The notes under the pieces were generated by a model. The model saw nothing but the letters and a program-made list of their open reading frames with translations, had not been told where the DNA came from and searched no databases. From the NCBI GenBank assembly GCA_000989515.1, contig LBOM01000005.1, positions 2,709 to 66,708 of the forward strand: a DNA stretch of 64,000 nt. Direction: 5' to 3'. Below are positions 3,669-59,143 of the stretch, piece after piece. The stretch is from Candidatus Nomurabacteria bacterium GW2011_GWE1_32_28. GTDB lineage: Bacteria > Patescibacteriota > Minisyncoccia > Phycocordibacterales > UBA9973. Position 1 is the first letter of the stretch; every line of letters starts with the position of its first letter. Both the position numbers and the translations under genes were made by a program.

Positions 3669-3695
3669 GCAAATCACGAATTATAAATTTTAAAA

Positions 3696-5456
3696 ATGCA
3701 AAAACAAAAACAAAAAAAAGTTAATAATCAGTCAGGTGCTGCAATGTTGGTGTCTATTGTTTTTTTTCTTTTTATTTCTCTTGCTATAATTTCTGGTCTT
3801 GTTTCACCATCTATTCGTGAATTTAAAAATGCTAATGTTGATTTAAGTTCAAAGAGATCATTTTTCTTAGCTGAATCAGGTATTGAAGATGCATTTTATA
3901 GAATATTAAAAAATAAAATGATAGGAACAAATGAAAATATTACGCTCGATTCTAATTCGACCACGACTACTATTACAACTCTGGAAGGTGGTGAAAAGCA
4001 GATTATGTCACTTGGTGATGTTTCAAATTATGAAAGACAAATAGGTTTAAAACTTTCTACTGGCAGTGGTGTTTCTTTCAATTATGGAGTACAGGTAGGA
4101 CAAGGTGGTATTAATTTAGTTGGTAGTGGTACCGTAAACGGAAATATATATGCAAATGGTCCAATTACTGGAGATGGTTCTGCTATCATCACTGGTACAG
4201 CAATTTCAGCTAATAGTCCTGCTCTAGCTGCAGACCAAGAAAATGGAGTTGGAATTCCAGACTACAATGTTACATTTGGAAATACAAATAGTACTCAAGA
4301 TATTGCTCAAAGTTTTAAAGTTGGAACAGAAAGTCCATTAAATAAAATTCAAATTTATGTTAAAAAAGTTGGTAATCCAAGTAATGCTACTGTTAAGATA
4401 GTCAATGATGTAAATGGAAATCCTGGTACTACAATATATGCTAGTGGAACACTTTCTGCTTCTGCTGTTACTACTTCATATGGATGGTTAAATATTACTT
4501 TCTCGTCTAACCCGTTACTTGATGTTGCCACGACTTATTGGTTAATTCTTGATGCAAGTACTTCTAGTAGTAAATATTATGTTATTGGTGCATCAAATAA
4601 TGGATATTTAAATGGTGTTGGAAAGATTGGTCAATCAAGTGGGATCTGGAACAATACAACACCAGAAGGACTTGATTATTATTTTGGTATTTACCTTGGT
4701 GGTTTTAATGGACTTATACAAGGTAATTCTCTTAGTCAGTGGAATCAGCTTCATGTTGGTACTATATCTGGTTCTGCTCAGGCTCATACTGTAAATTATA
4801 CGAACGCTACTGGAAATATATATTGTCAAACAGGGACTGGTAACAACAAGCCTTGTATCTTGCAGACTGATCCGACTTATATAGATTTTCCTGTTTCAGA
4901 AGCAAATATTTTACAATGGAAAACAGAAGCAGAGGCAGGTGGAGTTTATAATGGTAATTATTCGGTGGGTTGGGCTGGTGCAACCCTGGGTCCTAAAAAG
5001 ATAATTGGAAATTTGACAGTCTCAGGTGGAGGTATCTTAAATGTTACTGGTAGACTATGGGTTACAGGAGAGATTACTCTTAATGGTGGTGGAACGATTA
5101 AACTTGATTCAAGTTATGGCTCAAATGATGAGGTAATTATTTCTGATGATGAAGTTTCTATTTCTGGAGGAGGTCATGCAAGCGGATCTGGTACTGAAGG
5201 AAGTTATATTATGATGTTTTCTACTTCTACTGAGAGTGATGCAATGTTGATTTCTGGTGGAGCTGGTGCTGTTATTGCATACGCTCCTTTTGGCACTATC
5301 ACTATCTCTGGTGGTGCTTCTCTAAAAGAAGCTACAGGATATAGAATAATTGTCTCTGGTGGATCTAGTATTACTTATGAATCTGGTTTGACTAATAATA
5401 ATTTTTCTAGTGGACCTTCTGGTTCATGGGTAGTAGAAGAATGGATGGAGAAATAA
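3696..5456 (+). CDS. Large pilus-associated protein with a PilX-like N-terminal anchor and a Gly/Ser/Thr-rich beta-rich body
   Basis: SG|AAMLV plus a hydrophobic helix, with no Glu at +5. It is the last gene of the pilin block. The function is an inference. Confidence 0.45.
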   Translation: MQKQKQKKVNNQSGAAMLVSIVFFLFISLAIISGLVSPSIREFKNANVDLSSKRSFFLAESGIEDAFYRILKNKMIGTNENITLDSNSTTTTITTLEGGEKQIMSLGDVSNYERQIGLKLSTGSGVSFNYGVQVGQGGINLVGSGTVNGNIYANGPITGDGSAIITGTAISANSPALAADQENGVGIPDYNVTFGNTNSTQDIAQSFKVGTESPLNKIQIYVKKVGNPSNATVKIVNDVNGNPGTTIYASGTLSASAVTTSYGWLNITFSSNPLLDVATTYWLILDASTSSSKYYVIGASNNGYLNGVGKIGQSSGIWNNTTPEGLDYYFGIYLGGFNGLIQGNSLSQWNQLHVGTISGSAQAHTVNYTNATGNIYCQTGTGNNKPCILQTDPTYIDFPVSEANILQWKTEAEAGGVYNGNYSVGWAGATLGPKKIIGNLTVSGGGILNVTGRLWVTGEITLNGGGTIKLDSSYGSNDEVIISDDEVSISGGGHASGSGTEGSYIMMFSTSTESDAMLISGGAGAVIAYAPFGTITISGGASLKEATGYRIIVSGGSSITYESGLTNNNFSSGPSGSWVVEEWMEK

Positions 5457-9393: not shown

Positions 9394-9894
9394 ATGAAAA
9401 AAGATAAAATAATAATTTATACAGATGGTGCTGCGAGAGGAAACCCAGGTAAGGCTGGATGGGCAGCTATTATAATCAATTACGAATTACGAATTACGAA
9501 TCCAAAAATAATAGAGCTTGGTGGTTCATCTAGTTATGCCACAAATAACCAAATGGAGCTTTCTGGGCCAATAGGAGCATTAAAATATCTACATTTAAAT
9601 TCCGCTAGGCAAGGCCTAGCGCATGATGTAGAAATTTTTTCTGATTCAAAATACGTTATATTGGGTATTACAGAATGGATTTTTAATTGGCAGAAGAATA
9701 ATTGGAGAAATGCAGCCAAAAAATCAGTTTTGAATAAAGAGCTTTGGGTGGAGCTTTATGAGCTTTCTAGAGAATTTAAGATTAAATGGACTTATGTAGA
9801 AGGTCATAGTGGTGATAAATATAATGAAAGAGCAGATGAAATAGCTACAAATTTTGCTGATGGCAATAAAATAGAATTAAAAAACGAAAGATAA
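9394..9894 (+). CDS. rnhA: Ribonuclease HI
   Basis: IYTDGAARGNPG, NNQMEL and the HSGDKYNERAD catalytic pattern. It contains the in-frame heptamer array at 9474-9503. Confidence 0.85.
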   Translation: MKKDKIIIYTDGAARGNPGKAGWAAIIINYELRITNPKIIELGGSSSYATNNQMELSGPIGALKYLHLNSARQGLAHDVEIFSDSKYVILGITEWIFNWQKNNWRNAAKKSVLNKELWVELYELSREFKIKWTYVEGHSGDKYNERADEIATNFADGNKIELKNER

Positions 9895-11402: not shown

Positions 11403-11493
11403 CTGCCTTTTCACAGCCCGCACTCGAACCTGAATGTGGTTTACGAATCTAATATTGCGTATGCTGAAAAAGGCACCATTCTAAAGCTTCTTT
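11385..11493. terminator. Long imperfect inverted repeat between the convergent comEC and SOD genes (probable bidirectional terminator)
   Basis: Perfect 16-bp arms AAAGAAGCTTTAGAAT (11385-11400) and ATTCTAAAGCTTCTTT (11478-11493). An inner pair is TGCCTTTT / AAAAGGCA. Confidence 0.5.
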
Positions 11494-29306: not shown

Positions 29307-30164
29307 ATGAGACCAAAATATATAGACATACATGCTCATGTAAATTTTAAAATCTTTGATAGAGATCATAATGCTGTCATTCGTAGAGCACTTGATAATG
29401 ATACTTGGTTTTTTAATGTTGGTACTCAGTTAGATACCTCTCGTGCTGCGATTAAATTAGCCCATAGATATCAAGAGGGAGTTTTTGCTGTTATTGGTTT
29501 GCATCCTATTCATACGAGCTCTTCACCACATGATGAAGATGAATTAGGGGAAGGTGTAAAAGAATTTATTTCTCGTGAAGAAATTTTTGATAAAAATGTT
29601 TATAGAAAACTTTTGAAAGACCCAAAAGTTGTAGCCATAGGTGAATGTGGTTTGGATTATTATCATCTAAATGTTGAATCTATAGAAAAACAAAAGAAAG
29701 CATTTATTGAACAGATTGAACTTGCAGATGAAGTAGGGAAACCATTAATGCTTCATATTCGTAATAATCCGCAAGATAAAACACATAATGCATATTTTGA
29801 TACTTGCGAATTATTAAAGAAATTTCCAAAAGTTAGAGGTGTTTCTCATTTCTTTGCAGGCAACGTGGAAGACATGAAAAGGTTTGTAAATCAAGGTATT
29901 TATATTTCTTTTGCAGGACCTATCACCTATAAACCCAAACCAGAGATTTGTGATTATGAGGCCGTAATACTAGAAACTCCACTTAATATGATATTGACAG
30001 ACACAGATAGCCCTTATGTGGCCCCAGTTCCTTATCGTGGTAAACGCAATGAGCCATCTTATGTAAAAGAAATTGTTAAAAAAATAGCTTTAATTAAAAA
30101 TTTACAAGAAGTAGAAGTAGCAAAAGCTATTGTAGAAAATACTGAAAGACTTTTTGACATTTAG
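29307..30164 (+). CDS. tatD: TatD-family metal-dependent hydrolase
   Basis: DIHAHVN, GECGLDYY, LHIR, HFF and TDSPY motifs. Confidence 0.85.
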   Translation: MRPKYIDIHAHVNFKIFDRDHNAVIRRALDNDTWFFNVGTQLDTSRAAIKLAHRYQEGVFAVIGLHPIHTSSSPHDEDELGEGVKEFISREEIFDKNVYRKLLKDPKVVAIGECGLDYYHLNVESIEKQKKAFIEQIELADEVGKPLMLHIRNNPQDKTHNAYFDTCELLKKFPKVRGVSHFFAGNVEDMKRFVNQGIYISFAGPITYKPKPEICDYEAVILETPLNMILTDTDSPYVAPVPYRGKRNEPSYVKEIVKKIALIKNLQEVEVAKAIVENTERLFDI

Positions 30165-30271
30165 AGATATAATTGCTATTGTGTATACATCTCATTTATT
30201 ACGACTATGAATTCGTAATACAAAGGTCCATAGTGAGATTTATTAAAAATAATTAATATATAGTTAGATAA

Positions 30272-30781: not shown

Positions 30782-30842
30782 ATTAGTTATAGAGTTTATA
30801 AAGTCGAAAAGTTTATAAAGTTAAATAATAGATAAAAAAACT

Positions 30843-31292: not shown

Positions 31293-31409
31293 TTCAATTA
31301 CGAATTATAAATTACGAATTACGAATTAAAATACAAAAGAAGGGAGAATCAATTATGAATTAACAATTACCTGCCTACCGGTAGGCAGGCGAATTACGAA
31401 TTAATAAAC

Positions 31410-31610
31410 ATGAAACAAGATTATTTTTCAGCAAACAATATAAAACATATCGACTATAAGGATGTTGAAATTCTAAGGAAATTCTTAAATCCTAATGGCA
31501 AGATTATGAATCATAAACGTACTGGAGTAACAGCAAAGAATCAACGCGCCTTAGCTGGTGCAGTTAAGAATGCTAGATTCTTAGGATTACTTCCTTTTGT
31601 AGCTAAATAA
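31410..31610 (+). CDS. rpsR: Ribosomal protein S18
   Basis: [13 protein letters not shown]...[34 protein letters not shown]. Confidence 0.9.
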
Positions 31611-37825: not shown

Positions 37826-38137
37826 CATAAATTAAAAGTCTCAAATTATCAAAAAGATTTTAGTAAGAATCAATTTTTATAAAGCAATCTATCTGGCGAA
37901 GCTTCGGGAGCGTTCTGCTCGTCACTCAAGAAAATAATAAATGGAATACCATTTTTATTTTCTAAGCTCCTGCGCAAGGCTTTCTAAAAACTATTCTTAC
38001 TAAAATCTTAAATTACTAAAGTCTTGAATTGTTGCTTTTAAAAAGCATTGCGCAGGCTGTCGAGCTGAGCATAGCAATTTTCTAGCAAGAAAATATGTGC
38101 GGTTTTTAAAAGTAATAATTTGAGACTTTTAATTTAT
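37826..38137 (+). other. Nested inverted-repeat element, a candidate structured leader or ncRNA (a MITE-like alternative is possible)
   Basis: A perfect 23-bp outer inverted repeat (37826-37848 / 38115-38137), an inner hairpin (37855-37869 / 37992-38006) and a 26-bp hairpin (38017-38042 / 38104-38129) with four G.U pairs on the + strand only. Confidence 0.4.
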
Positions 38138-38207
38138 CTTAATTCGTAATTCGTAATTGTTAATTCGTAATTGATTCCCCCTTGCATTTTTCTCTGTCCT
38201 ATATATA

Positions 38208-39107
38208 ATGGACAACATGATCTTAGGTGAAAATAAAAACCTAAAAGACACCTCTAAGGATTCTTTTAAAGACACCTTTTCTGTTCCTATCTCAACATCT
38301 AATAAACAAGAGCAATCTGTCTCTTTGGTTTCTTCTTGGCAAAATTATTCTGGTTCATATACTAAAACAAATAAGTTGGTTACCGCTTTATATATGGTAA
38401 CGGACATAATGGAAAAAGGAGAACCTATTCGTTTAAAATTAAGAACTCTAGGAGTAGAAATTCTATCAGACATTGCATTTCTAGAAAAAGGGACTTTTGG
38501 TAATATAAAGGACAAGGTTATTTCAATTTTGTCCTTTTTAAATATTGCTTCTGATTTAGGAATGATATCAGGAATGAACAGTACTATTTTAAAGAAAGAG
38601 TTTACTGGACTTAAGCAATCAATAGAAGAATTTACAAATAAAAACAATCTTTGGTTTGAAGAATTTATGAGTGATAATTCAAAAGAAGAATTAAATGATT
38701 CTGTTTCAAGTCCTTTAGTTTCTAAGATAGATTTTTCTATCGGACACTCTAAATTAAATGATAAAAAAGATGTGTCTTTTGCTAAAGGACAAAGTGTGAG
38801 AATAGGAGTTCAAAAAGGAAGTACATTACTCAAGGCCTTGAGTAATGTTAAGGGAAATTCCATTAACAAAAATGCTAGTTCAGAGGGCTTTGAAATGCTT
38901 AAAAAAGACAGAAGAGAATCAATAATAAAAATTACAAAAAGTATACCAAATGGGGTGAGTATAAAGGACATTGTTACAAGATTAGATAACACTGGAAAAA
39001 AGTATGGAGAGAAGACAATACAAAGAGAATTGGTATCTATGGTAAAGGACAATGTCCTTAAGAAAACTGGAGAGAAGAGATGGAGTAAATACTCAATTAA
39101 CAATTAG
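38208..39107 (+). CDS. Hypothetical protein with a C-terminal winged-helix-like region
   Basis: 299-aa ORF. The C-terminus IKDIVTRLDNTGKKYGEKTIQRELVSMVKDNVLKKTGEKRWSKY resembles a wHTH. Confidence 0.5.
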   Translation: MDNMILGENKNLKDTSKDSFKDTFSVPISTSNKQEQSVSLVSSWQNYSGSYTKTNKLVTALYMVTDIMEKGEPIRLKLRTLGVEILSDIAFLEKGTFGNIKDKVISILSFLNIASDLGMISGMNSTILKKEFTGLKQSIEEFTNKNNLWFEEFMSDNSKEELNDSVSSPLVSKIDFSIGHSKLNDKKDVSFAKGQSVRIGVQKGSTLLKALSNVKGNSINKNASSEGFEMLKKDRRESIIKITKSIPNGVSIKDIVTRLDNTGKKYGEKTIQRELVSMVKDNVLKKTGEKRWSKYSINN

Positions 39108-39189
39108 AAATTACGAATTACGAATTGGATTCAATTGACCTTTAAAAGGGCCCGCCTTCATAGTAATGAAAGTGGGCCCTTAATTTTTG

Positions 39190-39301
39190 TAATTCGTAAT
39201 TGATTAGTCTTCTTTTGAGCCTTTAAATTCGTAATTCATAATTGTTAATTCGTAATTGATTAGTCTTCTTTTGAGCCTTTAAATTCGTAATTCGTAATTC
39301 G
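39190..39301. repeat. Tandem duplication (2 x 56 bp) built on ATTCGTAATT heptamer units
   Basis: TAATTCGTAATTGATTAGTCTTCTTTTGAGCCTTTAAATTCGTAATTC occurs at 39190 and again at 39246. Confidence 0.85.
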
Positions 39302-39854
39302 TAATTTTTAATTGATTCTATAGTTGCTTTTTACCCAAAAATATGCGAAAATAGAGTTGTGGATATTTGGCCTCAAAAGCTATTGTTCTTTTATTAGACG
39401 AGTTATCCACATAATATATTGCTCTATCTTATAGCTATATATTATACTATCTAAAGTGTTCAGAGATTGCGCTTTTATTGAGTGTGTTCTGTGTTCACAA
39501 TTTATATTTGTTTTTGTTCATAATTTCGTCGAAAAAATTTTGAATAAAGGCAAGCCCAACAAAGGTCAAAAATTTGTTTGGGTAAAAGAAAGGTCATTGA
39601 AAACTGAATAAAAAATATCTTATAAAAAGTAAATTTTTTGTAAGAGATTTTGTTCAAGTTTTTAATCTCAATTGAAAAATAAAAAATATTAAAAACATTT
39701 TTTATCATCAATTGATGTTTAAAGAAATCTGTTCATTATTAAATTTTTTCGTCGCATTATTAATTTTTATAAGTTATAGACGAAGAAAAAATAATGATAG
39801 AAAAAATACGCTTTTGGTTTTGTCGAAACTAACTTAATGGCGTAGAAAAAAATT

Positions 39855-44877: not shown

Positions 44878-44893
44878 AATTTAATAAATCTTA

Positions 44894-44912
44894 TCGGGTG
44901 TTGGACACCCGA
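44894..44912. repeat. REP-like palindrome, copy 1
   Basis: TCGGGTGTTGGACACCCGA. It begins a composite repeat of about 125 bp that is also found at 45789. Confidence 0.85.
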
Positions 44913-45085
44913 CAGAAAGAAAGTTTTTTCAAAACACTCACAAAATGTGGGTGTTTTTTATTATATTATGAGATAATGAGTAAGTTGTATTTTTATAATT
45001 TAATTTAAATATTTTTTTATACATTAAGTGTAAGGGGAATATTTTTTTACTAATGACGTATAGAAAAGTTCCACTTATATCTTCC

Positions 45086-45106
45086 GTCGGGTGTCCAACA
45101 CCCGAC
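45086..45106. repeat. REP-like palindrome, copy 2 (loop flipped)
   Basis: GTCGGGTGTCCAACACCCGAC. The central TGG/CCA is inverted relative to the other copies. Confidence 0.85.
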
Positions 45107-45177
45107 AGTTGAATAAATTTGAAGATTTTTTGTTGGTCTGTATACTTTTTTACTTTTTAAAAGTATATAATTAGATA

Positions 45178-45774
45178 ATGGATCAAAAACAACCATGGTT
45201 TATAAATTTGTTTTTAAATTTTAAAGGAAGACTTTTAATTATAGTTTTTATTACGATCTTTGTTACGTTAATTACAGTTATTCATTCTTTTGTATTGAGA
45301 TTAAATCCTTATTTAATCATAGAGTTAGTAATCACTGTTTCTTTTTTTGGTATGTATTTTTCTATTCCTCAATTGATTGCTACTCAAAAAAGTGAAAAAT
45401 TTAGAAAAAGATTATATCTTAAAAGTGGTAAAAAAATATTATCATTATTATCTTCGATTTCTTTCTATTTTATTTTATGTATTTTAATTGTTTTTTTATT
45501 TGGTATGGTTCTTGCTACTATATTTACTTCATCTGACAATGGAGAAATTTGGGCTTATTCTCTTTTTGGTTCTGGTTTATATGTTTTTATCTTTTGGTTA
45601 GCTTCTTTCTTAGTTGGTGTAATTTCTTTATTATTAAATTCTAATAAATCGGAAATTGTAATAGTTCAGGAAAGAACTCCTGTTAAAGTTTATTTTTCAT
45701 CTATTATTTTTATTTTTTTATCCGTACTTGTATTATTCTTTGTATTTATATTTACTGTAGAAAATTATTTATAA
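45178..45774 (+). CDS. Hypothetical polytopic membrane protein
   Basis: 198 aa with about 5 hydrophobic spans. Confidence 0.5.
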   Translation: MDQKQPWFINLFLNFKGRLLIIVFITIFVTLITVIHSFVLRLNPYLIIELVITVSFFGMYFSIPQLIATQKSEKFRKRLYLKSGKKILSLLSSISFYFILCILIVFLFGMVLATIFTSSDNGEIWAYSLFGSGLYVFIFWLASFLVGVISLLLNSNKSEIVIVQERTPVKVYFSSIIFIFLSVLVLFFVFIFTVENYL

Positions 45775-45788
45775 TTTTACTTTATTAT

Positions 45789-45815
45789 CTTGTCGGGTGT
45801 TGGACACCCGACAAG
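45789..45815. repeat. REP-like palindrome, copy 3
   Basis: CTTGTCGGGTGTTGGACACCCGACAAG. Confidence 0.85.
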
Positions 45816-45962
45816 ATAAGGAGTTTTTATAAAACACTCATATTTTACGGGTGTTTTATTTTGTGTTATGAGATAATAGTTATGGTTGTATTTATAATTT
45901 TATTTTAATAAAGATTTTTAAAAGATTTCCAGTTATTGGATTTCTGTAGATCTTAATTTTTT

Positions 45963-46622
45963 ATGAGAAAAAATCCTCTTGTAACTAATCAGTATTATCA
46001 TATTTATAATAGAGGAGTCGATAAAAGAGATATTTTTATGAATAAATCTGATTTAGATAGATTTATTTTGAGTGTAAAGGAATTTAATATAGTTAAACCT
46101 ATAGGTAGTATTAAAGAGCGATTAATAGAATTAAAAGCCCCGTCGGGTGTTGGACACCCGACGGGGCTTGTTTCTATTGTCTGTTATTGTTTTAATCCAA
46201 ATCATTTTCATTTTATTTTAAAACAAGAAGTAGATGGTGGAATTTCAGAATTTTTTAAGCGTTTACTTGGTGGATATACAAATTATTTTAATTTAATACA
46301 CAAGAGAAATGGGGCATTATTTCAAGGAAGATTTAAGTCTAATTTGGTTGACGATGAAGAATATTTTTTAAAAATTCGTCCTTATGTGCATTTAAATTAT
46401 TTAGTACATGATATTCCAAAAGAAAAAAAGTATTTAATATCATCAAGCAAGAAAGAATATGATACTAATAAATTTACTATTGTTTCAAAAAAAGAAGCAA
46501 AAGAACTTTTGGATTTTTATAATGGTAATCTAAATTATAAAAAAGAATGCTTAGATGTAATTTCTTTTATTCGAGAAGAAAGAGGATTAACTTCTTTGTT
46601 TGAAGAAGAATTATTACCATAA
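45963..46622 (+). CDS. REP-associated tyrosine transposase (RAYT; IS200/IS605 TnpA-like HUH Y1 enzyme)
   Basis: YYHIYNRGVDKRDIF, the HUH motif NPNHFHFIL, ALFQGRFKS and the Tyr motif RPYVHLNYL. REP palindromes flank it. Confidence 0.8.
   Translation: MRKNPLVTNQYYHIYNRGVDKRDIFMNKSDLDRFILSVKEFNIVKPIGSIKERLIELKAPSGVGHPTGLVSIVCYCFNPNHFHFILKQEVDGGISEFFKRLLGGYTNYFNLIHKRNGALFQGRFKSNLVDDEEYFLKIRPYVHLNYLVHDIPKEKKYLISSSKKEYDTNKFTIVSKKEAKELLDFYNGNLNYKKECLDVISFIREERGLTSLFEEELLP
46137..46167. repeat. REP-like palindrome, copy 4, inside the RAYT coding sequence
   Basis: GCCCCGTCGGGTGT-TGG-ACACCCGACGGGGC (14-bp stem). It is translated in frame as APSGVGHPTGL. Confidence 0.85.
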
Positions 46623-46635
46623 AAATTATCCCTTA

Positions 46636-46654
46636 TCGGGTGTTGGACACCCGA
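46636..46654. repeat. REP-like palindrome, copy 5
   Basis: TCGGGTGTTGGACACCCGA, 14 bp after the RAYT stop codon. Confidence 0.85.
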
Positions 46655-46723
46655 AATGGAAAGTTATACACCTTTTTGCTTTATTTTTGTTGTGTAATGT
46701 TTTCATTAGCATATACTTGAACA

Positions 46724-51599: not shown

Positions 51600-51802
51600 G
51601 ATATTATACAAATACCGCAAAGAAAATAGGCGTAATCAATTAACAATTAAGAATTACGAGTTAACAATTTGAAATTCGTAATTAAAAATTCGTAATTGAA
51701 TGTAAGTCCTATTTAGTGGGTCGATATTTGCCAAACAGGCGAAAAAGATTTGCGGCGAAAGCCGTTTTTTTTGTTTTTAAAAAATAAAAAGGTAATAAAA
51801 TT
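51600..51802 (+). promoter_or_regulatory. Structured leader upstream of rplJ (candidate L10-leader-type autoregulatory attenuator)
   Basis: Paired heptamer arrays (51631-51701) and the GC hairpin GCGGCGAAAGCCG plus T8 (about 51752-51775) lie just before the rplJ start. Confidence 0.35.
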
Positions 51803-57301: not shown

Positions 57302-57643
57302 TCTTCAGTCAATTATTAAATTGACTTCAGAACAGTCTGGATCCTCAGAGGAATAGTGAACGAAAGTGAACTACTGTTTTAATCGAAATTAACCATATTG
57401 CTGTTTGCAATATCACGGCGGTCGCGTTAAATTTATATTAACAAATCACGCGATGAAGTCGGGGTTTTCGGTGGAATCCTATCACATTTATGTGAGGACA
57501 ATACCGAGAAGAAAATTTATTTTTTCTTTGTAGAGACTACAAACCGACCCCCTTAAATTGGGGAATGTATAGTCCAATCCCATAAGTAATTATGGAAATT
57601 GCTAAAGCCTAAGGCCTAATGCCTAAAGCCTAGCATGTAGATG
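57302..57643 (+). mobile_element. ORF-less group-I-like intron at the position equivalent to E. coli 23S U2593 (boundaries provisional)
   Basis: The 3' flank resumes exactly at CGTGAGACAG. The 5' flank ends in U and the insert ends in G. A core can be drawn: GTCGG/CCGAC, TTCGGTG/TACCGAG, GACTAC/GTATAGTC, CCCC/GGGG, and an S-like AATGTATAGTCC at 57564-57575. Confidence 0.55.
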
Positions 57644-57706
57644 CGTGAGACAGGTTGGTCTCCTATCTACTGCACTCGTTGATTCTTGAGAAGATTTGCT
57701 CCTAGT

Positions 57707-58526
57707 AGGCCCGGAAGGGCTTTGCTACTTCACGAAGAAATTTGTGATGAAAAAGTGGCTAATAACGGTGAAGTCTTCATTGATGTTTCTGATTTGAGAA
57801 AAATAATATCATTCGATCCTTGATATTATGATTCGCTTGAGGACCAGAAATATGATAAGATAATACCGTGGGAAGTCGATTTAAAATTATGAAAGAAATT
57901 GAGAAAGCTTATATTGCTGGTTTTCTTGATGGAGATGGTAGTCTAATGCTTCAAATTAAAAAAAGAAGTGATAGTAAACGAGGAATTCGTTTTATGACAA
58001 CCATTTGTTTCTATCAAGACACTAGACATGAAAAGACTTTATATTGGATGAAAAAGATTTTAGGTATTGGTTATATTTCCAGAAGAAATGATGGAATGAC
58101 TGAACTTAGAATAAATGGATATGTGCAGATTGCAAAAATTCTTAAAGATTTATTGCCTTTTGTAAAATTCAAAAAAATACAAGCTAATATTTTATACAAA
58201 GCTTGTAATCTTTTATCTAAAACAAAGTTTAGTAATCTCTCGGAAAAACAATTAATTAAGCTCGTTGATTTAATTTTAGTTATTCAAGGTGAAAACTATG
58301 TTACTAAAAAGAAAAAAACCAAAAATGAATTGTTTAAAATTTTAAATTTGACCCCGTAACGACTTGTTTCCGACTTTATGTCGGAACGGACTTACATAAC
58401 ACTGGAAAGTTCTAATATATTTAATATATGAGAACAGGTTTATGTTTGTAATACGCCAACGCCTTAACTTTAATTAAAGAAAGGCGAAGATATAGTCTGC
58501 ACTCCTAGAAATAGGGGAGATATGTG
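57707..58526 (+). mobile_element. Group I intron inserted inside the sarcin-ricin loop of the 23S, carrying a LAGLIDADG homing-endonuclease gene
   Basis: GCTCCTAGT|...|ACGAGAGGACCGGAGTG. The 5' exon ends in U and the insert ends in G. The conserved J8/7-P7 element AAGATATAGTC lies at 58487-58497. Confidence 0.8.
57889..58359 (+). CDS. LAGLIDADG homing endonuclease (single-motif, I-CreI-like)
   Basis: MKEIEKAYIAGFLDGDGSLMLQIKK..., 156 aa from the ATG at 57889, located inside the intron. Confidence 0.9.
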   Translation: MKEIEKAYIAGFLDGDGSLMLQIKKRSDSKRGIRFMTTICFYQDTRHEKTLYWMKKILGIGYISRRNDGMTELRINGYVQIAKILKDLLPFVKFKKIQANILYKACNLLSKTKFSNLSEKQLIKLVDLILVIQGENYVTKKKKTKNELFKILNLTP

Positions 58527-58793
58527 ACGAGAGGACCGGAGTGAACTGACCTCTGGTGTACGAGCTCTATTGCCAAATGGACTGCTCGGTAGCTATGTCG
58601 GGATTGGATAACCTCTGAAAGCATCTAAGAGGGAAGCCAGCTTCAAGATTAGGAATCGTTAAGAACCGTGAGAGATGATCACGTTGATAGGCTTTAAGTG
58701 TAAGCGAGAAGTACTAATGTTTCGATTCCTGTTAAGAAATTTGTAAATCACAATTAAAAAAATAAAAAAATTCATATTAATATTCATTATTAT

Positions 58794-58902
<109 letters not shown>

Positions 58903-59036
58903 ATAGTAATGAATTTTTTTATTTAAATTTGTCGCAGGATGCCCCGTCTTACAGGCACAGTACACCTTTTGGATTTTTTCATTCACGTTGTTCTGAAAAA
59001 TTCTCAAAAGCTCTTGCACTTGGGTCCCAAACCAAA

Positions 59037-59119
<83 letters not shown>

Positions 59120-59143
59120 CACTGAGTATTTGATTCTTTTAAA

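Follow-up and report, generated by a model that had tools for sequence, protein, structure and literature searches.

A 64,000-nucleotide stretch of the genome of Candidatus Nomurabacteria bacterium GW2011_GWE1_32_28 (contig LBOM01000005.1, positions 2,709 to 66,708; hereafter the window, or W where it is compared with other loci) carries short, dispersed tandem arrays of the heptamer AATTACG. On balance, these arrays probably represent a small insertion-type repeat of the heptanucleotide class, the class of the short tandemly repeated repetitive sequences (STRRs) and the long simple sequence repeats (LSSRs), which would persist at sites where it is harmless. We favour this reading because the copies have fixed ends, are optional in loops and spacers, obey frame and stop rules, prefer gene 3′ ends and convergent spacers, and follow no gene theme; the host genes next to them appear to share no common function. 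The heptamer class itself is already known from cyanobacterial STRRs, heptanucleotide LSSRs and TAACTGA repeats. What is new is the unit AATTACG, its host in the candidate phyla radiation (CPR), a stereotyped cassette with fixed ends, the frequency of inverted pairs, and the clean insertion into RNA-helix and protein loops.

The dominance of heptanucleotide units among bacterial LSSRs, and the occurrence of the same units in unrelated phyla, has been an open question ever since the 1990 description of STRRs. In a streamlined CPR genome, many of whose relatives have been sequenced, filled sites can be compared unusually cleanly with empty ones, be it in a protein loop, in the loop of an RNA helix or in stop-to-start spacers, and it is because of these comparisons that we regard the arrays as inserted, defined cassettes rather than as microsatellites grown in situ. 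There is also a practical side. Since the arrays supply stop codons and add seven residues to an RNase H, they can mislead gene callers, and they can also break assemblies or pass for regulatory motifs.

The window was compared with 80 related Nomurabacteria loci (814 kb; SSB 79–94% identical). Loci of relatives and other contigs carry L numbers, and RNase H homologues carry P numbers. The source is a tiny groundwater bacterium; the RNase H and L10 proteins encoded in the window show 100% identity to proteins filed under its name, and the window corresponds to bases 316871–380870 of a metagenomic scaffold of 410 kb. About 82 kb of the source genome was examined in all; the 17.8 kb beyond the window hold no further cassette, and the single heptamers found there lie within a protein's internal repeats.

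Structure and copies of the AATTACG cassette

Counted over both strands, the window has 30 exact matches to AATTACG, compared with 7.26 ± 2.65 in 100 dinucleotide shuffles (largest 15). Periodicity was scored by counting AATTA every 7 nucleotides (nt) across three units, with a maximum of 18. Nine clusters in the window reach 17/18 or more, the level we call strong, against none in ten first-order Markov randomisations. The dispersed family described in the original prediction is therefore real. Tandem Repeats Finder (TRF) reports period-7 arrays of 2.6 to 6.3 copies at seven places (2578–2608, 9478–9501, 31296–31337, 38140–38172, 39109–39126, 39226–39257 and 39282–39306), and exact runs of three AATTACG units lie at 9478 and 39286. 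Overall, the 64 kb contain 12–13 cassette copies at seven loci, of which one copy is in coding sequence; the sites originally listed gain a decayed copy at 3672–3695 (periodic score 15/18), while the lone TTACGAAT near 11443, earlier put forward as a member, is one unit and is given no weight. A known RNA family was ruled out, as no Rfam match overlaps any array (Rfam 15, at the gathering threshold or at E ≤ 1), and no tRNAs were found.

Aligned in register, the copies resolve into a cassette of four to five units, TC followed by AATTACG-AATTA(A/T)N-AATTACG-AATTACG-AATT(A/T)AA, spanning 35–70 nt and occurring alone or as an inverted doublet. Both orientations, and the borders AATCAATT and AATTGATT, are present as first described. 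TC precedes 9/9 strong copies in the window, C precedes 24 of the 32 non-redundant copies from the window and its relatives, and the second unit is a variant one in most copies. Most variant units end in ATG, ACA or ATA, i.e., they are changed at the CpG. Read in the AATTACG direction, the array is free of stop codons in all frames (AAT TAC GAA TTA CGA ATT ACG); its reverse strand has TAA in all three. The dispersing unit thus appears to be a ready-made cassette, not a free microsatellite.

The copies occur in four settings, namely solitary sense cassettes that fill spacers, three in-frame units in RNase H, inverted pairs around a terminator hairpin, and a ~69-nt palindrome in the rplJ leader. 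The solitary sense copies reach from 2–4 nt past one stop codon to 0–13 nt before the next ATG, and have no self-complementarity beyond AATT. The first (2578–2608, + strand; C followed by AATTACG AATCAAC AATTACG AATTACG AAT) lies in the spacer of two pilin-like genes, 4 nt after the stop of open reading frame (ORF) 2106–2573, which has an N_methyl pilin motif. The decayed copy (3672–3695, +) comprises three units, AATCACG AATTATA AATTTTA, and AAA before the ATG of ORF 3696–5456, whose start it abuts; in relative L122 the equivalent pilin-operon spacer holds an intact cassette at 4070–4100. The ssb–rpsR spacer, 117 nt long in the window, holds two sense cassettes. One (31296–31333, +) starts 3 nt past the ssb stop and is extra to the single cassette found in the spacer of relatives. 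The other (31350–31410, +; AATTATG AATTAAC AATTAC, then G AATTACG AATTAAT AAAC) reaches the rpsR ATG at 31411 and is split by a 20-nt GC palindrome at 31370–31389. The only copy inside a gene consists of three units (21 nt) in frame at 9478–9498 (+), which encode NYELRIT in a β-hairpin loop of an RNase H (Pfam RNase_H).

Several copies surround a gene of 299 amino acids (aa; ORF 38208–39107). A reverse cassette (38135–38172, − strand) lies in the divergent spacer between ftsK and this gene and ends ~10 nt upstream of the −35 box TTGCAT; the promoter, TTGCAT-17-TATAAT, was read from the sequence and is kept in relatives. A sense cassette (39088–39126, +) covers the last codons of the ORF and gives it its stop, AAT TAG. 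Downstream, inverted cassettes enclose a terminator-like GC hairpin (39148–39188, +; GGGCCCGCCTTCAT..ATGAAAGTGGGCCC, then the T-run TTAATTTTT), which forms the inner helix of the fold. The three reverse cassettes on its far side (39185–39320, −) stem from a 56-bp tandem duplication, placed by TRF at 39189–39317 (period 56, 2.3 copies, 91% matches), and the last of them pairs with 39088–39126. For 39085–39325 the predicted fold has −66.9 kcal/mol (z = −7.5), with the first and last cassettes pairing over ~40 bp. The doublet at 51631–51697, a palindrome of ~69 nt with one + and one − cassette, sits in the terminal loop of the rplJ-leader helix AATAGG/CCTATT; its predicted fold has −16.4 kcal/mol (z = −3.6).

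These details uphold much of the original prediction, including the GC hairpins at 31370–31389 and 39148–39179, the 56-bp duplication, and the extended stems of inverted arrays, one of which joins the + array at 39095 to the last − array. The statement that the family sits mostly in leaders of highly expressed genes went too far. Some sites are leaders (rplJ), but the census of sites comprises two pilin-operon spacers, one coding sequence, the ssb–rpsR spacer, a divergent promoter region, a gene 3′ end and the rplJ leader.

Filled and empty sites in related Nomurabacteria

The ssb–rpsR spacer, scored in 77 relatives, is only 2–20 nt long in most of them, and in about 12 it contains a 35–46-nt AATTACG cassette extending up to the rpsR ATG. 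These carriers are scattered across the SSB+S18 tree, a short one of 240 columns. Once the GC palindrome is removed, the adjoining parts of the window's spacer join into a five-unit cassette like those of L131, L197 and L204. The spacer would accordingly comprise an ancestral five-unit cassette, with the palindrome inserted in unit 3, and a second cassette upstream. The palindrome itself (CCTGCCTACCGGTAGGCAGG, 20 nt and perfect) recurs at unrelated sites (L157 3245–3264; L160 16259–16278), which suggests that it is a very small dispersed element.

Other inserts found in the ssb–rpsR spacer of relatives include inverted GCCTAAN heptamer arrays, arrays of the 9-mer TTATAAAGT, GC palindromes, hairpins of 110–135 nt bounded by terminal inverted repeats with CCCGTACGAAAT/ATTTCGTACGGG ends, and a piece of 331 nt in L151 that encodes a small GIY-YIG-like ORF. 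With at least six kinds of small element, this spacer is an insertion hot spot in L130–L209, and we regard such hot spots as permissive because the same spacers take other small inserts too. AATTACG ×2 is the commonest tandem heptamer other than A-runs in the 80 relatives' loci, where the density of AATTACG is 0.16 units per kb, compared with 0.47 in the window.

Two of the other repeat families are also present in the window. The 9-mer TTATAAAGT stands there four times in tandem between rpsF and ssb (30787–30822), and it fills the ssb–rpsR spacer in L157, L176 and L203. A second heptamer family, CTAAAGC/GCCTAAN, occurs at 57602–57632, in the ssb–rpsR spacers of L130, L148 and L198, and upstream of the 299-aa gene in L131; in relatives its heptamers often form hairpins as inverted pairs.

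The RNase H copy provides a comparison at the protein level. Of 24 close homologues in an alignment (72–85% identical), nine have the seven-residue insertion and 15 lack it, and P0002, which has it, is identical to P0015, which does not, across the C-terminal ~90 residues. Without the insertion, the loop has the length of the 15-residue loop of E. coli RNase HI. The in-frame copy amounts to three units in the window, L124 and L126. The L126 DNA (37% G+C, protein 72–73% identical) still reads AATTACGAATTAGGAATTACGAAT, and the L124 DNA has decayed to AATTATGAATTAAAAATTACAAAT.

The rplJ leader provides the corresponding comparison in RNA. It is conserved as ATACCGCAAAG..AATAGG, a loop, and CCTATTTAGTGGGTCGATA..TTGCGGCGAAAGCCGTTTTTTT. 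In W, L308 and L309 the loop holds the ~69-nt doublet, and in L307, L310 and L312 it holds 10–23 unrelated nt. Between W and L308, 76 of 77 nt of the doublet are identical, while the flanking leader differs at many positions. The leader as a whole (51617–51800 in the window, and L307–L312) reads ATACCGCAAAG..AATAGG/CCTATTTAGTGGGTCGATA..TTGCGGCGAAAGCCG with a T-run and has two variable hairpin positions. It looks like an analogue of the L10 leader, and has no Rfam match.

The cassette at the 3′ end of the 299-aa gene, with its AAT TAG stop, is retained in L131 and L169. Six relatives (L155, L133, L161, L168, L194 and L139) have an array, a GC hairpin and an inverted array at this position built from GTTCTAG/CTAGAAC, and GCCTAAN arrays likewise surround a GC hairpin here in relatives. 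GTTCTAG/CTAGAAC constitutes a third heptamer family, with exact tandem runs in L139. W and L131 differ in unit number downstream of the gene. The cassette upstream of the gene is absent from L131, the closest relative, in which a composite of cassette, GATTCCCCC and TTTTTTTGCATTTT is repeated three times. At the loci that allow a comparison, the element is thus an optional insertion rather than a conserved piece of regulation, and the architecture of the array outlasts the particular heptamer unit.

Because close relatives lack the cassette at the same sites, we interpret it as an insertion at permissive positions. Ready-made copies would be added at new sites, we infer by recombination or template switching, and would probably be selfish or neutral. 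They would survive only where they do no harm, such as stop-to-start spacers in the stop-free orientation, the surface loop of RNase H with exactly three units (seven codons), the vicinity of a terminator hairpin, or the end loop of an existing RNA helix. Later change would come from 7-nt slippage, local duplication, decay at CpG and the nested insertion of other small palindromes. The long stems of inverted pairs would stack on pre-existing helices, as a consequence of the element and not its cause.

Arrays in other phyla and competing explanations

The exact three-unit array (AATTACG)3 is present in at least 120 stretches of GTDB genomes from many phyla, although taxon proportions among the matches listed are not meaningful. 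The hosts among these matches include Nostoc, Calothrix, Anabaena, Planktothrix, Chitinophaga, Flavobacterium and many Bacteroidales, and further Ignavibacteria, Acidobacteriota, Chloroflexota, Planctomycetota, Akkermansia and a Shapirobacteria CPR genome. Viral contigs contain (AATTACG)3 in 64 stretches, compared with 22, 6 and 3 for the composition-matched controls AATTAGC, ATATACG and AAATTCG, respectively. With the same unit arrayed in many phyla and in viral contigs, and with related Nomurabacteria carrying the cassette at the same and at other sites, the family cannot be called genome-specific, as had been proposed.

Among the matches listed, for which ORF calls are mechanical, ~92% of the ~118 arrays off contig ends are intergenic, and the nine within ORFs are all in sense orientation. 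These foreign arrays lie in convergent spacers 24 times and in divergent spacers 4 times, adjoin gene 3′ ends 111 times and 5′ ends 69 times, and are unbiased in orientation in co-directional spacers (26 versus 23). In 19 of 113 of them, from several phyla, an inverted partner follows 17–153 nt downstream, sometimes round a GC hairpin. The foreign loci are also rich in other heptamers, with 69 other exact three-unit heptamer arrays against 1–7 for each of periods 5, 6, 8 and 9. For the viral AATTACG loci the figures are 23 against 1–4; 946 kb of Nomurabacteria yield four exact three-unit heptamer arrays, a small number. The expected enrichment at ribosomal or highly expressed genes was not seen, as the 57 start-adjacent genes in other phyla match 71 Pfam families, none of which occurs more than twice, and a regulon of such genes was rejected on the basis of this census. 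The AATTACG arrays of Nostoc are also broken by GC-rich hairpin inserts. Elhai and colleagues are said to have described, in 2008, small dispersed repeats nested in Nostoc tandem heptamer repeats, the nested element, rather than the heptamer array, reportedly being the mobile part. The 20-nt palindrome inside a heptamer unit at 31370–31389 resembles that arrangement in its position.

The closest known systems are the STRR heptanucleotides of heterocystous cyanobacteria and the heptanucleotide LSSRs of Mrazek et al. 2007, as presented in PMC4692102 and PMC4679880, the latter also relaying from Mrazek et al. a heptamer-specific excess in bacterial LSSRs. They share with the present arrays a 7-nt unit, short tandem arrays at dispersed and mostly intergenic sites, the lack of an established function, several unit families per genome and a sporadic taxonomic distribution. 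Nostoc, Calothrix and Anabaena carry (AATTACG)n itself, and the AATTACG loci of other phyla, as in those systems, are rich in other heptamer arrays and not in other periods. The differences are the ~1-Mb CPR host, the short cassette of 3–5 units, its fixed ends, the variant second unit and the frequent inverted pairs. A search for the unit in any phase (AATTACGAATTACG) found it absent from 8 million full texts.

A second parallel is offered by the TAACTGA direct repeats of marine Beggiatoaceae, Cyanobacteria and Bacteroidetes (MacGregor 2015, PMC4679880). Like AATTACG, this heptamer is common to distant phyla, its forward copies stand directly upstream of starts without a Shine–Dalgarno (SD) sequence, copies overlap the upstream stop codon, some are in ribosomal-protein operons, and the occasional in-frame copies within ORFs have only the stop-free orientation. 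Unlike AATTACG, which is a different unit with its stops in the reverse strand, TAACTGA has stops in the forward strand; inverted pairs are rare for it and common for AATTACG, and AATTACG has empty orthologous sites, which mark it as dispensable. We also considered whether a palindromic tetramer plus triloop accounts for units of 7 nt. This fits AATTACG, CTAGAAC and GGCCTAA, but it was rejected, because neither TAACTGA nor the classical STRRs conform to it and because AAATTCG, used as a control, is seldom found.

Several observations weigh against an insertion-type repeat. Slippage alone does not explain the recurrence of AATTACG in distant phyla, and no target-site duplication, transposase or other mobilising activity or enzyme was found; the comparison of filled and empty sites at the rplJ leader, ssb–rpsR and RNase H showed no such duplication. 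The four-unit core of the ssb–rpsR cassette has 86.7% mean identity across ten lineages, compared with 50.1% at 4-fold sites of ssb and rpsR and 34% by chance. Furthermore, the 3′ cassette with its terminator is 90–96% identical between W and L131, against ~77% for the coding sequence of the gene; at the sense cassette (39088–39126) the identity is 94–96%. Conservation of this above-neutral kind may reflect selection or the recent dispersal of ready-made copies. A recent recombination tract was considered as its cause; the closing 60 nt of ssb show no unusual similarity among carriers (59% identical synonymous codons), and the opening 60 nt of rpsR do, but in non-carriers too. In addition, all solitary Nomurabacteria cassettes in co-directional spacers are sense and abut start codons, at five independent sites (pilin 1–2, pilin 3–4, ssb–rpsR, rpsF–ssb and X–glyS) with none antisense, which hints at an RNA-level or strand-specific constraint. 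As nearly all genes of the window lie on one strand, with positive GC skew throughout, this sense bias is inseparable from replication direction.

The conservation and the sense bias would both suit a functional RNA module, the main rival explanation, which we nevertheless consider unlikely. Here the sense cassettes would be SD-independent, A/U-rich, unstructured, S1-bound initiation regions running from stop to ATG, and the inverted pairs would be hairpins for mRNA stabilisation or RNase III processing. The genome scarcely uses SD sequences (motif in 9/54 called genes, against 8/54 in a control window), and forward cassettes abut SD-less starts at ssb–rpsR, rpsF–ssb, the pilin spacers and X–glyS. 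The position of TAACTGA repeats at SD-less starts, including some in ribosomal-protein operons (PMC4679880), points the same way. A further likeness is found in tobacco mosaic virus (TMV). Its Ω leader is active in bacteria. The leader consists of three ACAAUUAC repeats and poly-CAA (PMC9502800), so that CAAUUAC-type repeats run up to the AUG with no SD, and the junction of units 2 and 3 in the cassette holds ACAATTAC, the octamer repeated three times in Ω. Ω, however, is a translational enhancer of a plant virus, and the likeness is confined to this 8-nt motif.

Other results speak against an RNA module. Most relatives express rpsR from a 2–20-nt spacer without the cassette. The predicted unpaired probability round the rpsR start is 0.57 with and 0.59 without it, so that a gain in start-codon accessibility was rejected. 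The first 60 nt of rpsR are similar in carriers (83%) and in non-carriers (73%), and because this stretch is constrained in all lineages the local conservation is not peculiar to the cassette. Among the matches listed from other phyla, orientation in co-directional spacers is unbiased and gene 3′ ends are favoured. Copies also lie within coding sequence and upstream of promoters, and the sense bias may equally reflect replication direction.

A conserved sequence-specific activity common to many bacterial phyla and their viruses might also lie behind the arrays. They would then be its substrate or product, the activity being either that of an Ω-like enhancer, recognised by the ribosome or S1, which takes the place of the SD sequence in SD-poor lineages, or that of an enzyme that writes or copies heptamer cassettes into DNA. 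We think this quite improbable; if true, it would explain the same unit, the inverted-pair layout and the above-neutral conservation from 1-Mb CPR genomes to the 9-Mb genomes of Nostoc.

We regard as very improbable a role at the level of DNA, either as a binding array for a regulator or nucleoid protein or as an enhancer resembling an UP element. The AATT cores do recur at a fixed period, the reverse cassettes at 38135–38172 and 39276–39320 end in AATTGATTC ~8–10 nt upstream of the −35-like TTGCAT and TTGCTT, and L131 has its triple composite of cassette, GATTCCCCC and TTTTTTTGCATTTT. With a period of 7 bp, however, neighbouring AATT cores point to different sides of the helix; coding sequence, intercistronic spacers and RNA-helix loops make contexts too diverse for a single regulator; and the neighbouring genes are no regulon. 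The 299-aa protein, whose cassette-flanked gene ends in a possible winged-helix domain, was examined as a cognate binder. This candidate was rejected, as the protein has no Pfam or NCBIfam match and only a weak winged-helix match (4y66, E = 0.13), and the upstream cassette is missing in L131.

It is still less probable that the inverted doublet is the replicating form of an element mobilised in trans, with singlets as its decaying remnants. The models would be a miniature inverted-repeat transposable element (MITE), or the repetitive extragenic palindromic (REP) sequences, bacterial interspersed mosaic elements (BIMEs) and REP doublets forming hairpins (REPINs) that depend on REP-associated tyrosine transposases (RAYTs), in the sense in which PMC3116915 introduces the REPIN concept. 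The present arrays are likewise short extragenic repeats whose inverted doublets make long hairpins, with a preference for gene 3′ ends and convergent spacers and with lineage-specific copy number. Doublets exist at 51631–51697 and at 39088–39126 with 39276–39320, the former being a clean ~69-nt insertion kept almost unchanged in L308, and RAYT-like Y1 transposase ORFs occur at 45963–46622 in the window and at 1961–2596 in L305. The window's RAYT-like gene, however, is flanked by five copies of GTCGGGTGTTGGACACCCGAC, and no AATTACG array lies in 44.2–47.5 kb. This agrees with the original prediction that the family is distinct from the RAYT-associated palindromes, and RAYT/REP membership was rejected because the gene has its own, different REP. 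The solitary cassette is not a palindrome and has no GTAG motif, solitary cassettes outnumber doublets and share conserved ends, and one unit in many phyla, with their unrelated mobilomes, is not expected of RAYT-specific REPs. Set against MITEs, the doublet has inverted ends, but none of the three filled and empty sites shows a target-site duplication.

Contingency loci, i.e., phase-variable simple sequence repeats whose gains and losses of 7-nt units turn pilin or surface genes on and off, are extremely improbable here. The pilin operon does hold two copies, surface-protein genes have others nearby, and 7-nt repeats are reported in PMC8262952 to control hmw1A in Haemophilus. The arrays, however, have only 3–5 units interrupted by variant units, and none separates a −35 from a −10 box or lies out of frame within the 5′ part of a coding region. 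The orthologous ssb–rpsR arrays keep 4–5 units across ten lineages and differ mostly by point changes, and the in-frame RNase H copy has a constant three units in the window, L124 and L126. Finally, even in a genome of ~31% G+C, where AATT-rich strings are common, a chance product of composition is practically excluded, as no shuffle reached 30 heptamers, no randomisation produced a cluster, and ends and unit order are common to the copies.

Neighbouring features of the window

The hairpin at 30198–30219, originally counted among the arrays, does not belong to the family; it forms the inner helix of a conserved 5′ leader of rpsF (30189–30238; TCTCAT..hairpin..CAAAGGTCCATAGTGAGAT), downstream of the promoter TTGACA-17-TATTGT at 30154–30182. 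Its arms covary, with compensatory double substitutions at 9 of 16 predicted pairs in 12 relatives, and some relatives carry an extra inserted hairpin. The leader is not called by Rfam and is probably an S6:S18-binding rpsF leader.

The palindrome GTCGGGTGTTGGACACCCGAC has its five copies within 44890–46663, flanking and inside the RAYT-like region, one of them within the ORF at 46139–46170. The ORF at 45963–46622 has weak matches to Y1_Tnp and REP_Tyr_transpos, and the second RAYT-like ORF, in L305, lies ~7 kb upstream of the window. A 1.4-kb gap between the 23S and 5S rRNA genes (57408–58901) contains a LAGLIDADG endonuclease ORF (57868–58359), and a second 5S-like match at 59019–59121 falls just under the Rfam threshold (37.2 versus 38 bits).

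Perfect matches to the DnaA-box consensus, TTATCCACA, lie at 39358–39411, 43415 and 53347 within the context GAGTTATCCACA; ~40 nt further upstream is an inverted partner resembling TGTGGATA. The window has no more DnaA boxes than expected by chance, and its GC skew gives no sign of an origin. In nearly all relatives the copy at 39403 is kept, again downstream of the 299-aa gene.

Many genes of the window have a TATAAT-like box directly 5′ of the ATG. At 38183–38220, and at many gene starts in L305, L306 and L128, near-consensus promoters end a few bases before the annotated ATG or overlap it. Promoters at the ATG, together with SD motifs at background level, suggest that leaderless or SD-independent initiation is widespread in these Nomurabacteria. 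Beside the RecJ–RNase H region of one relative, a reverse transcriptase (RVT_1) and a bAvd-like neighbour (L126 3564–4586; L127 141–1560) form a pair that looks like a diversity-generating retroelement.

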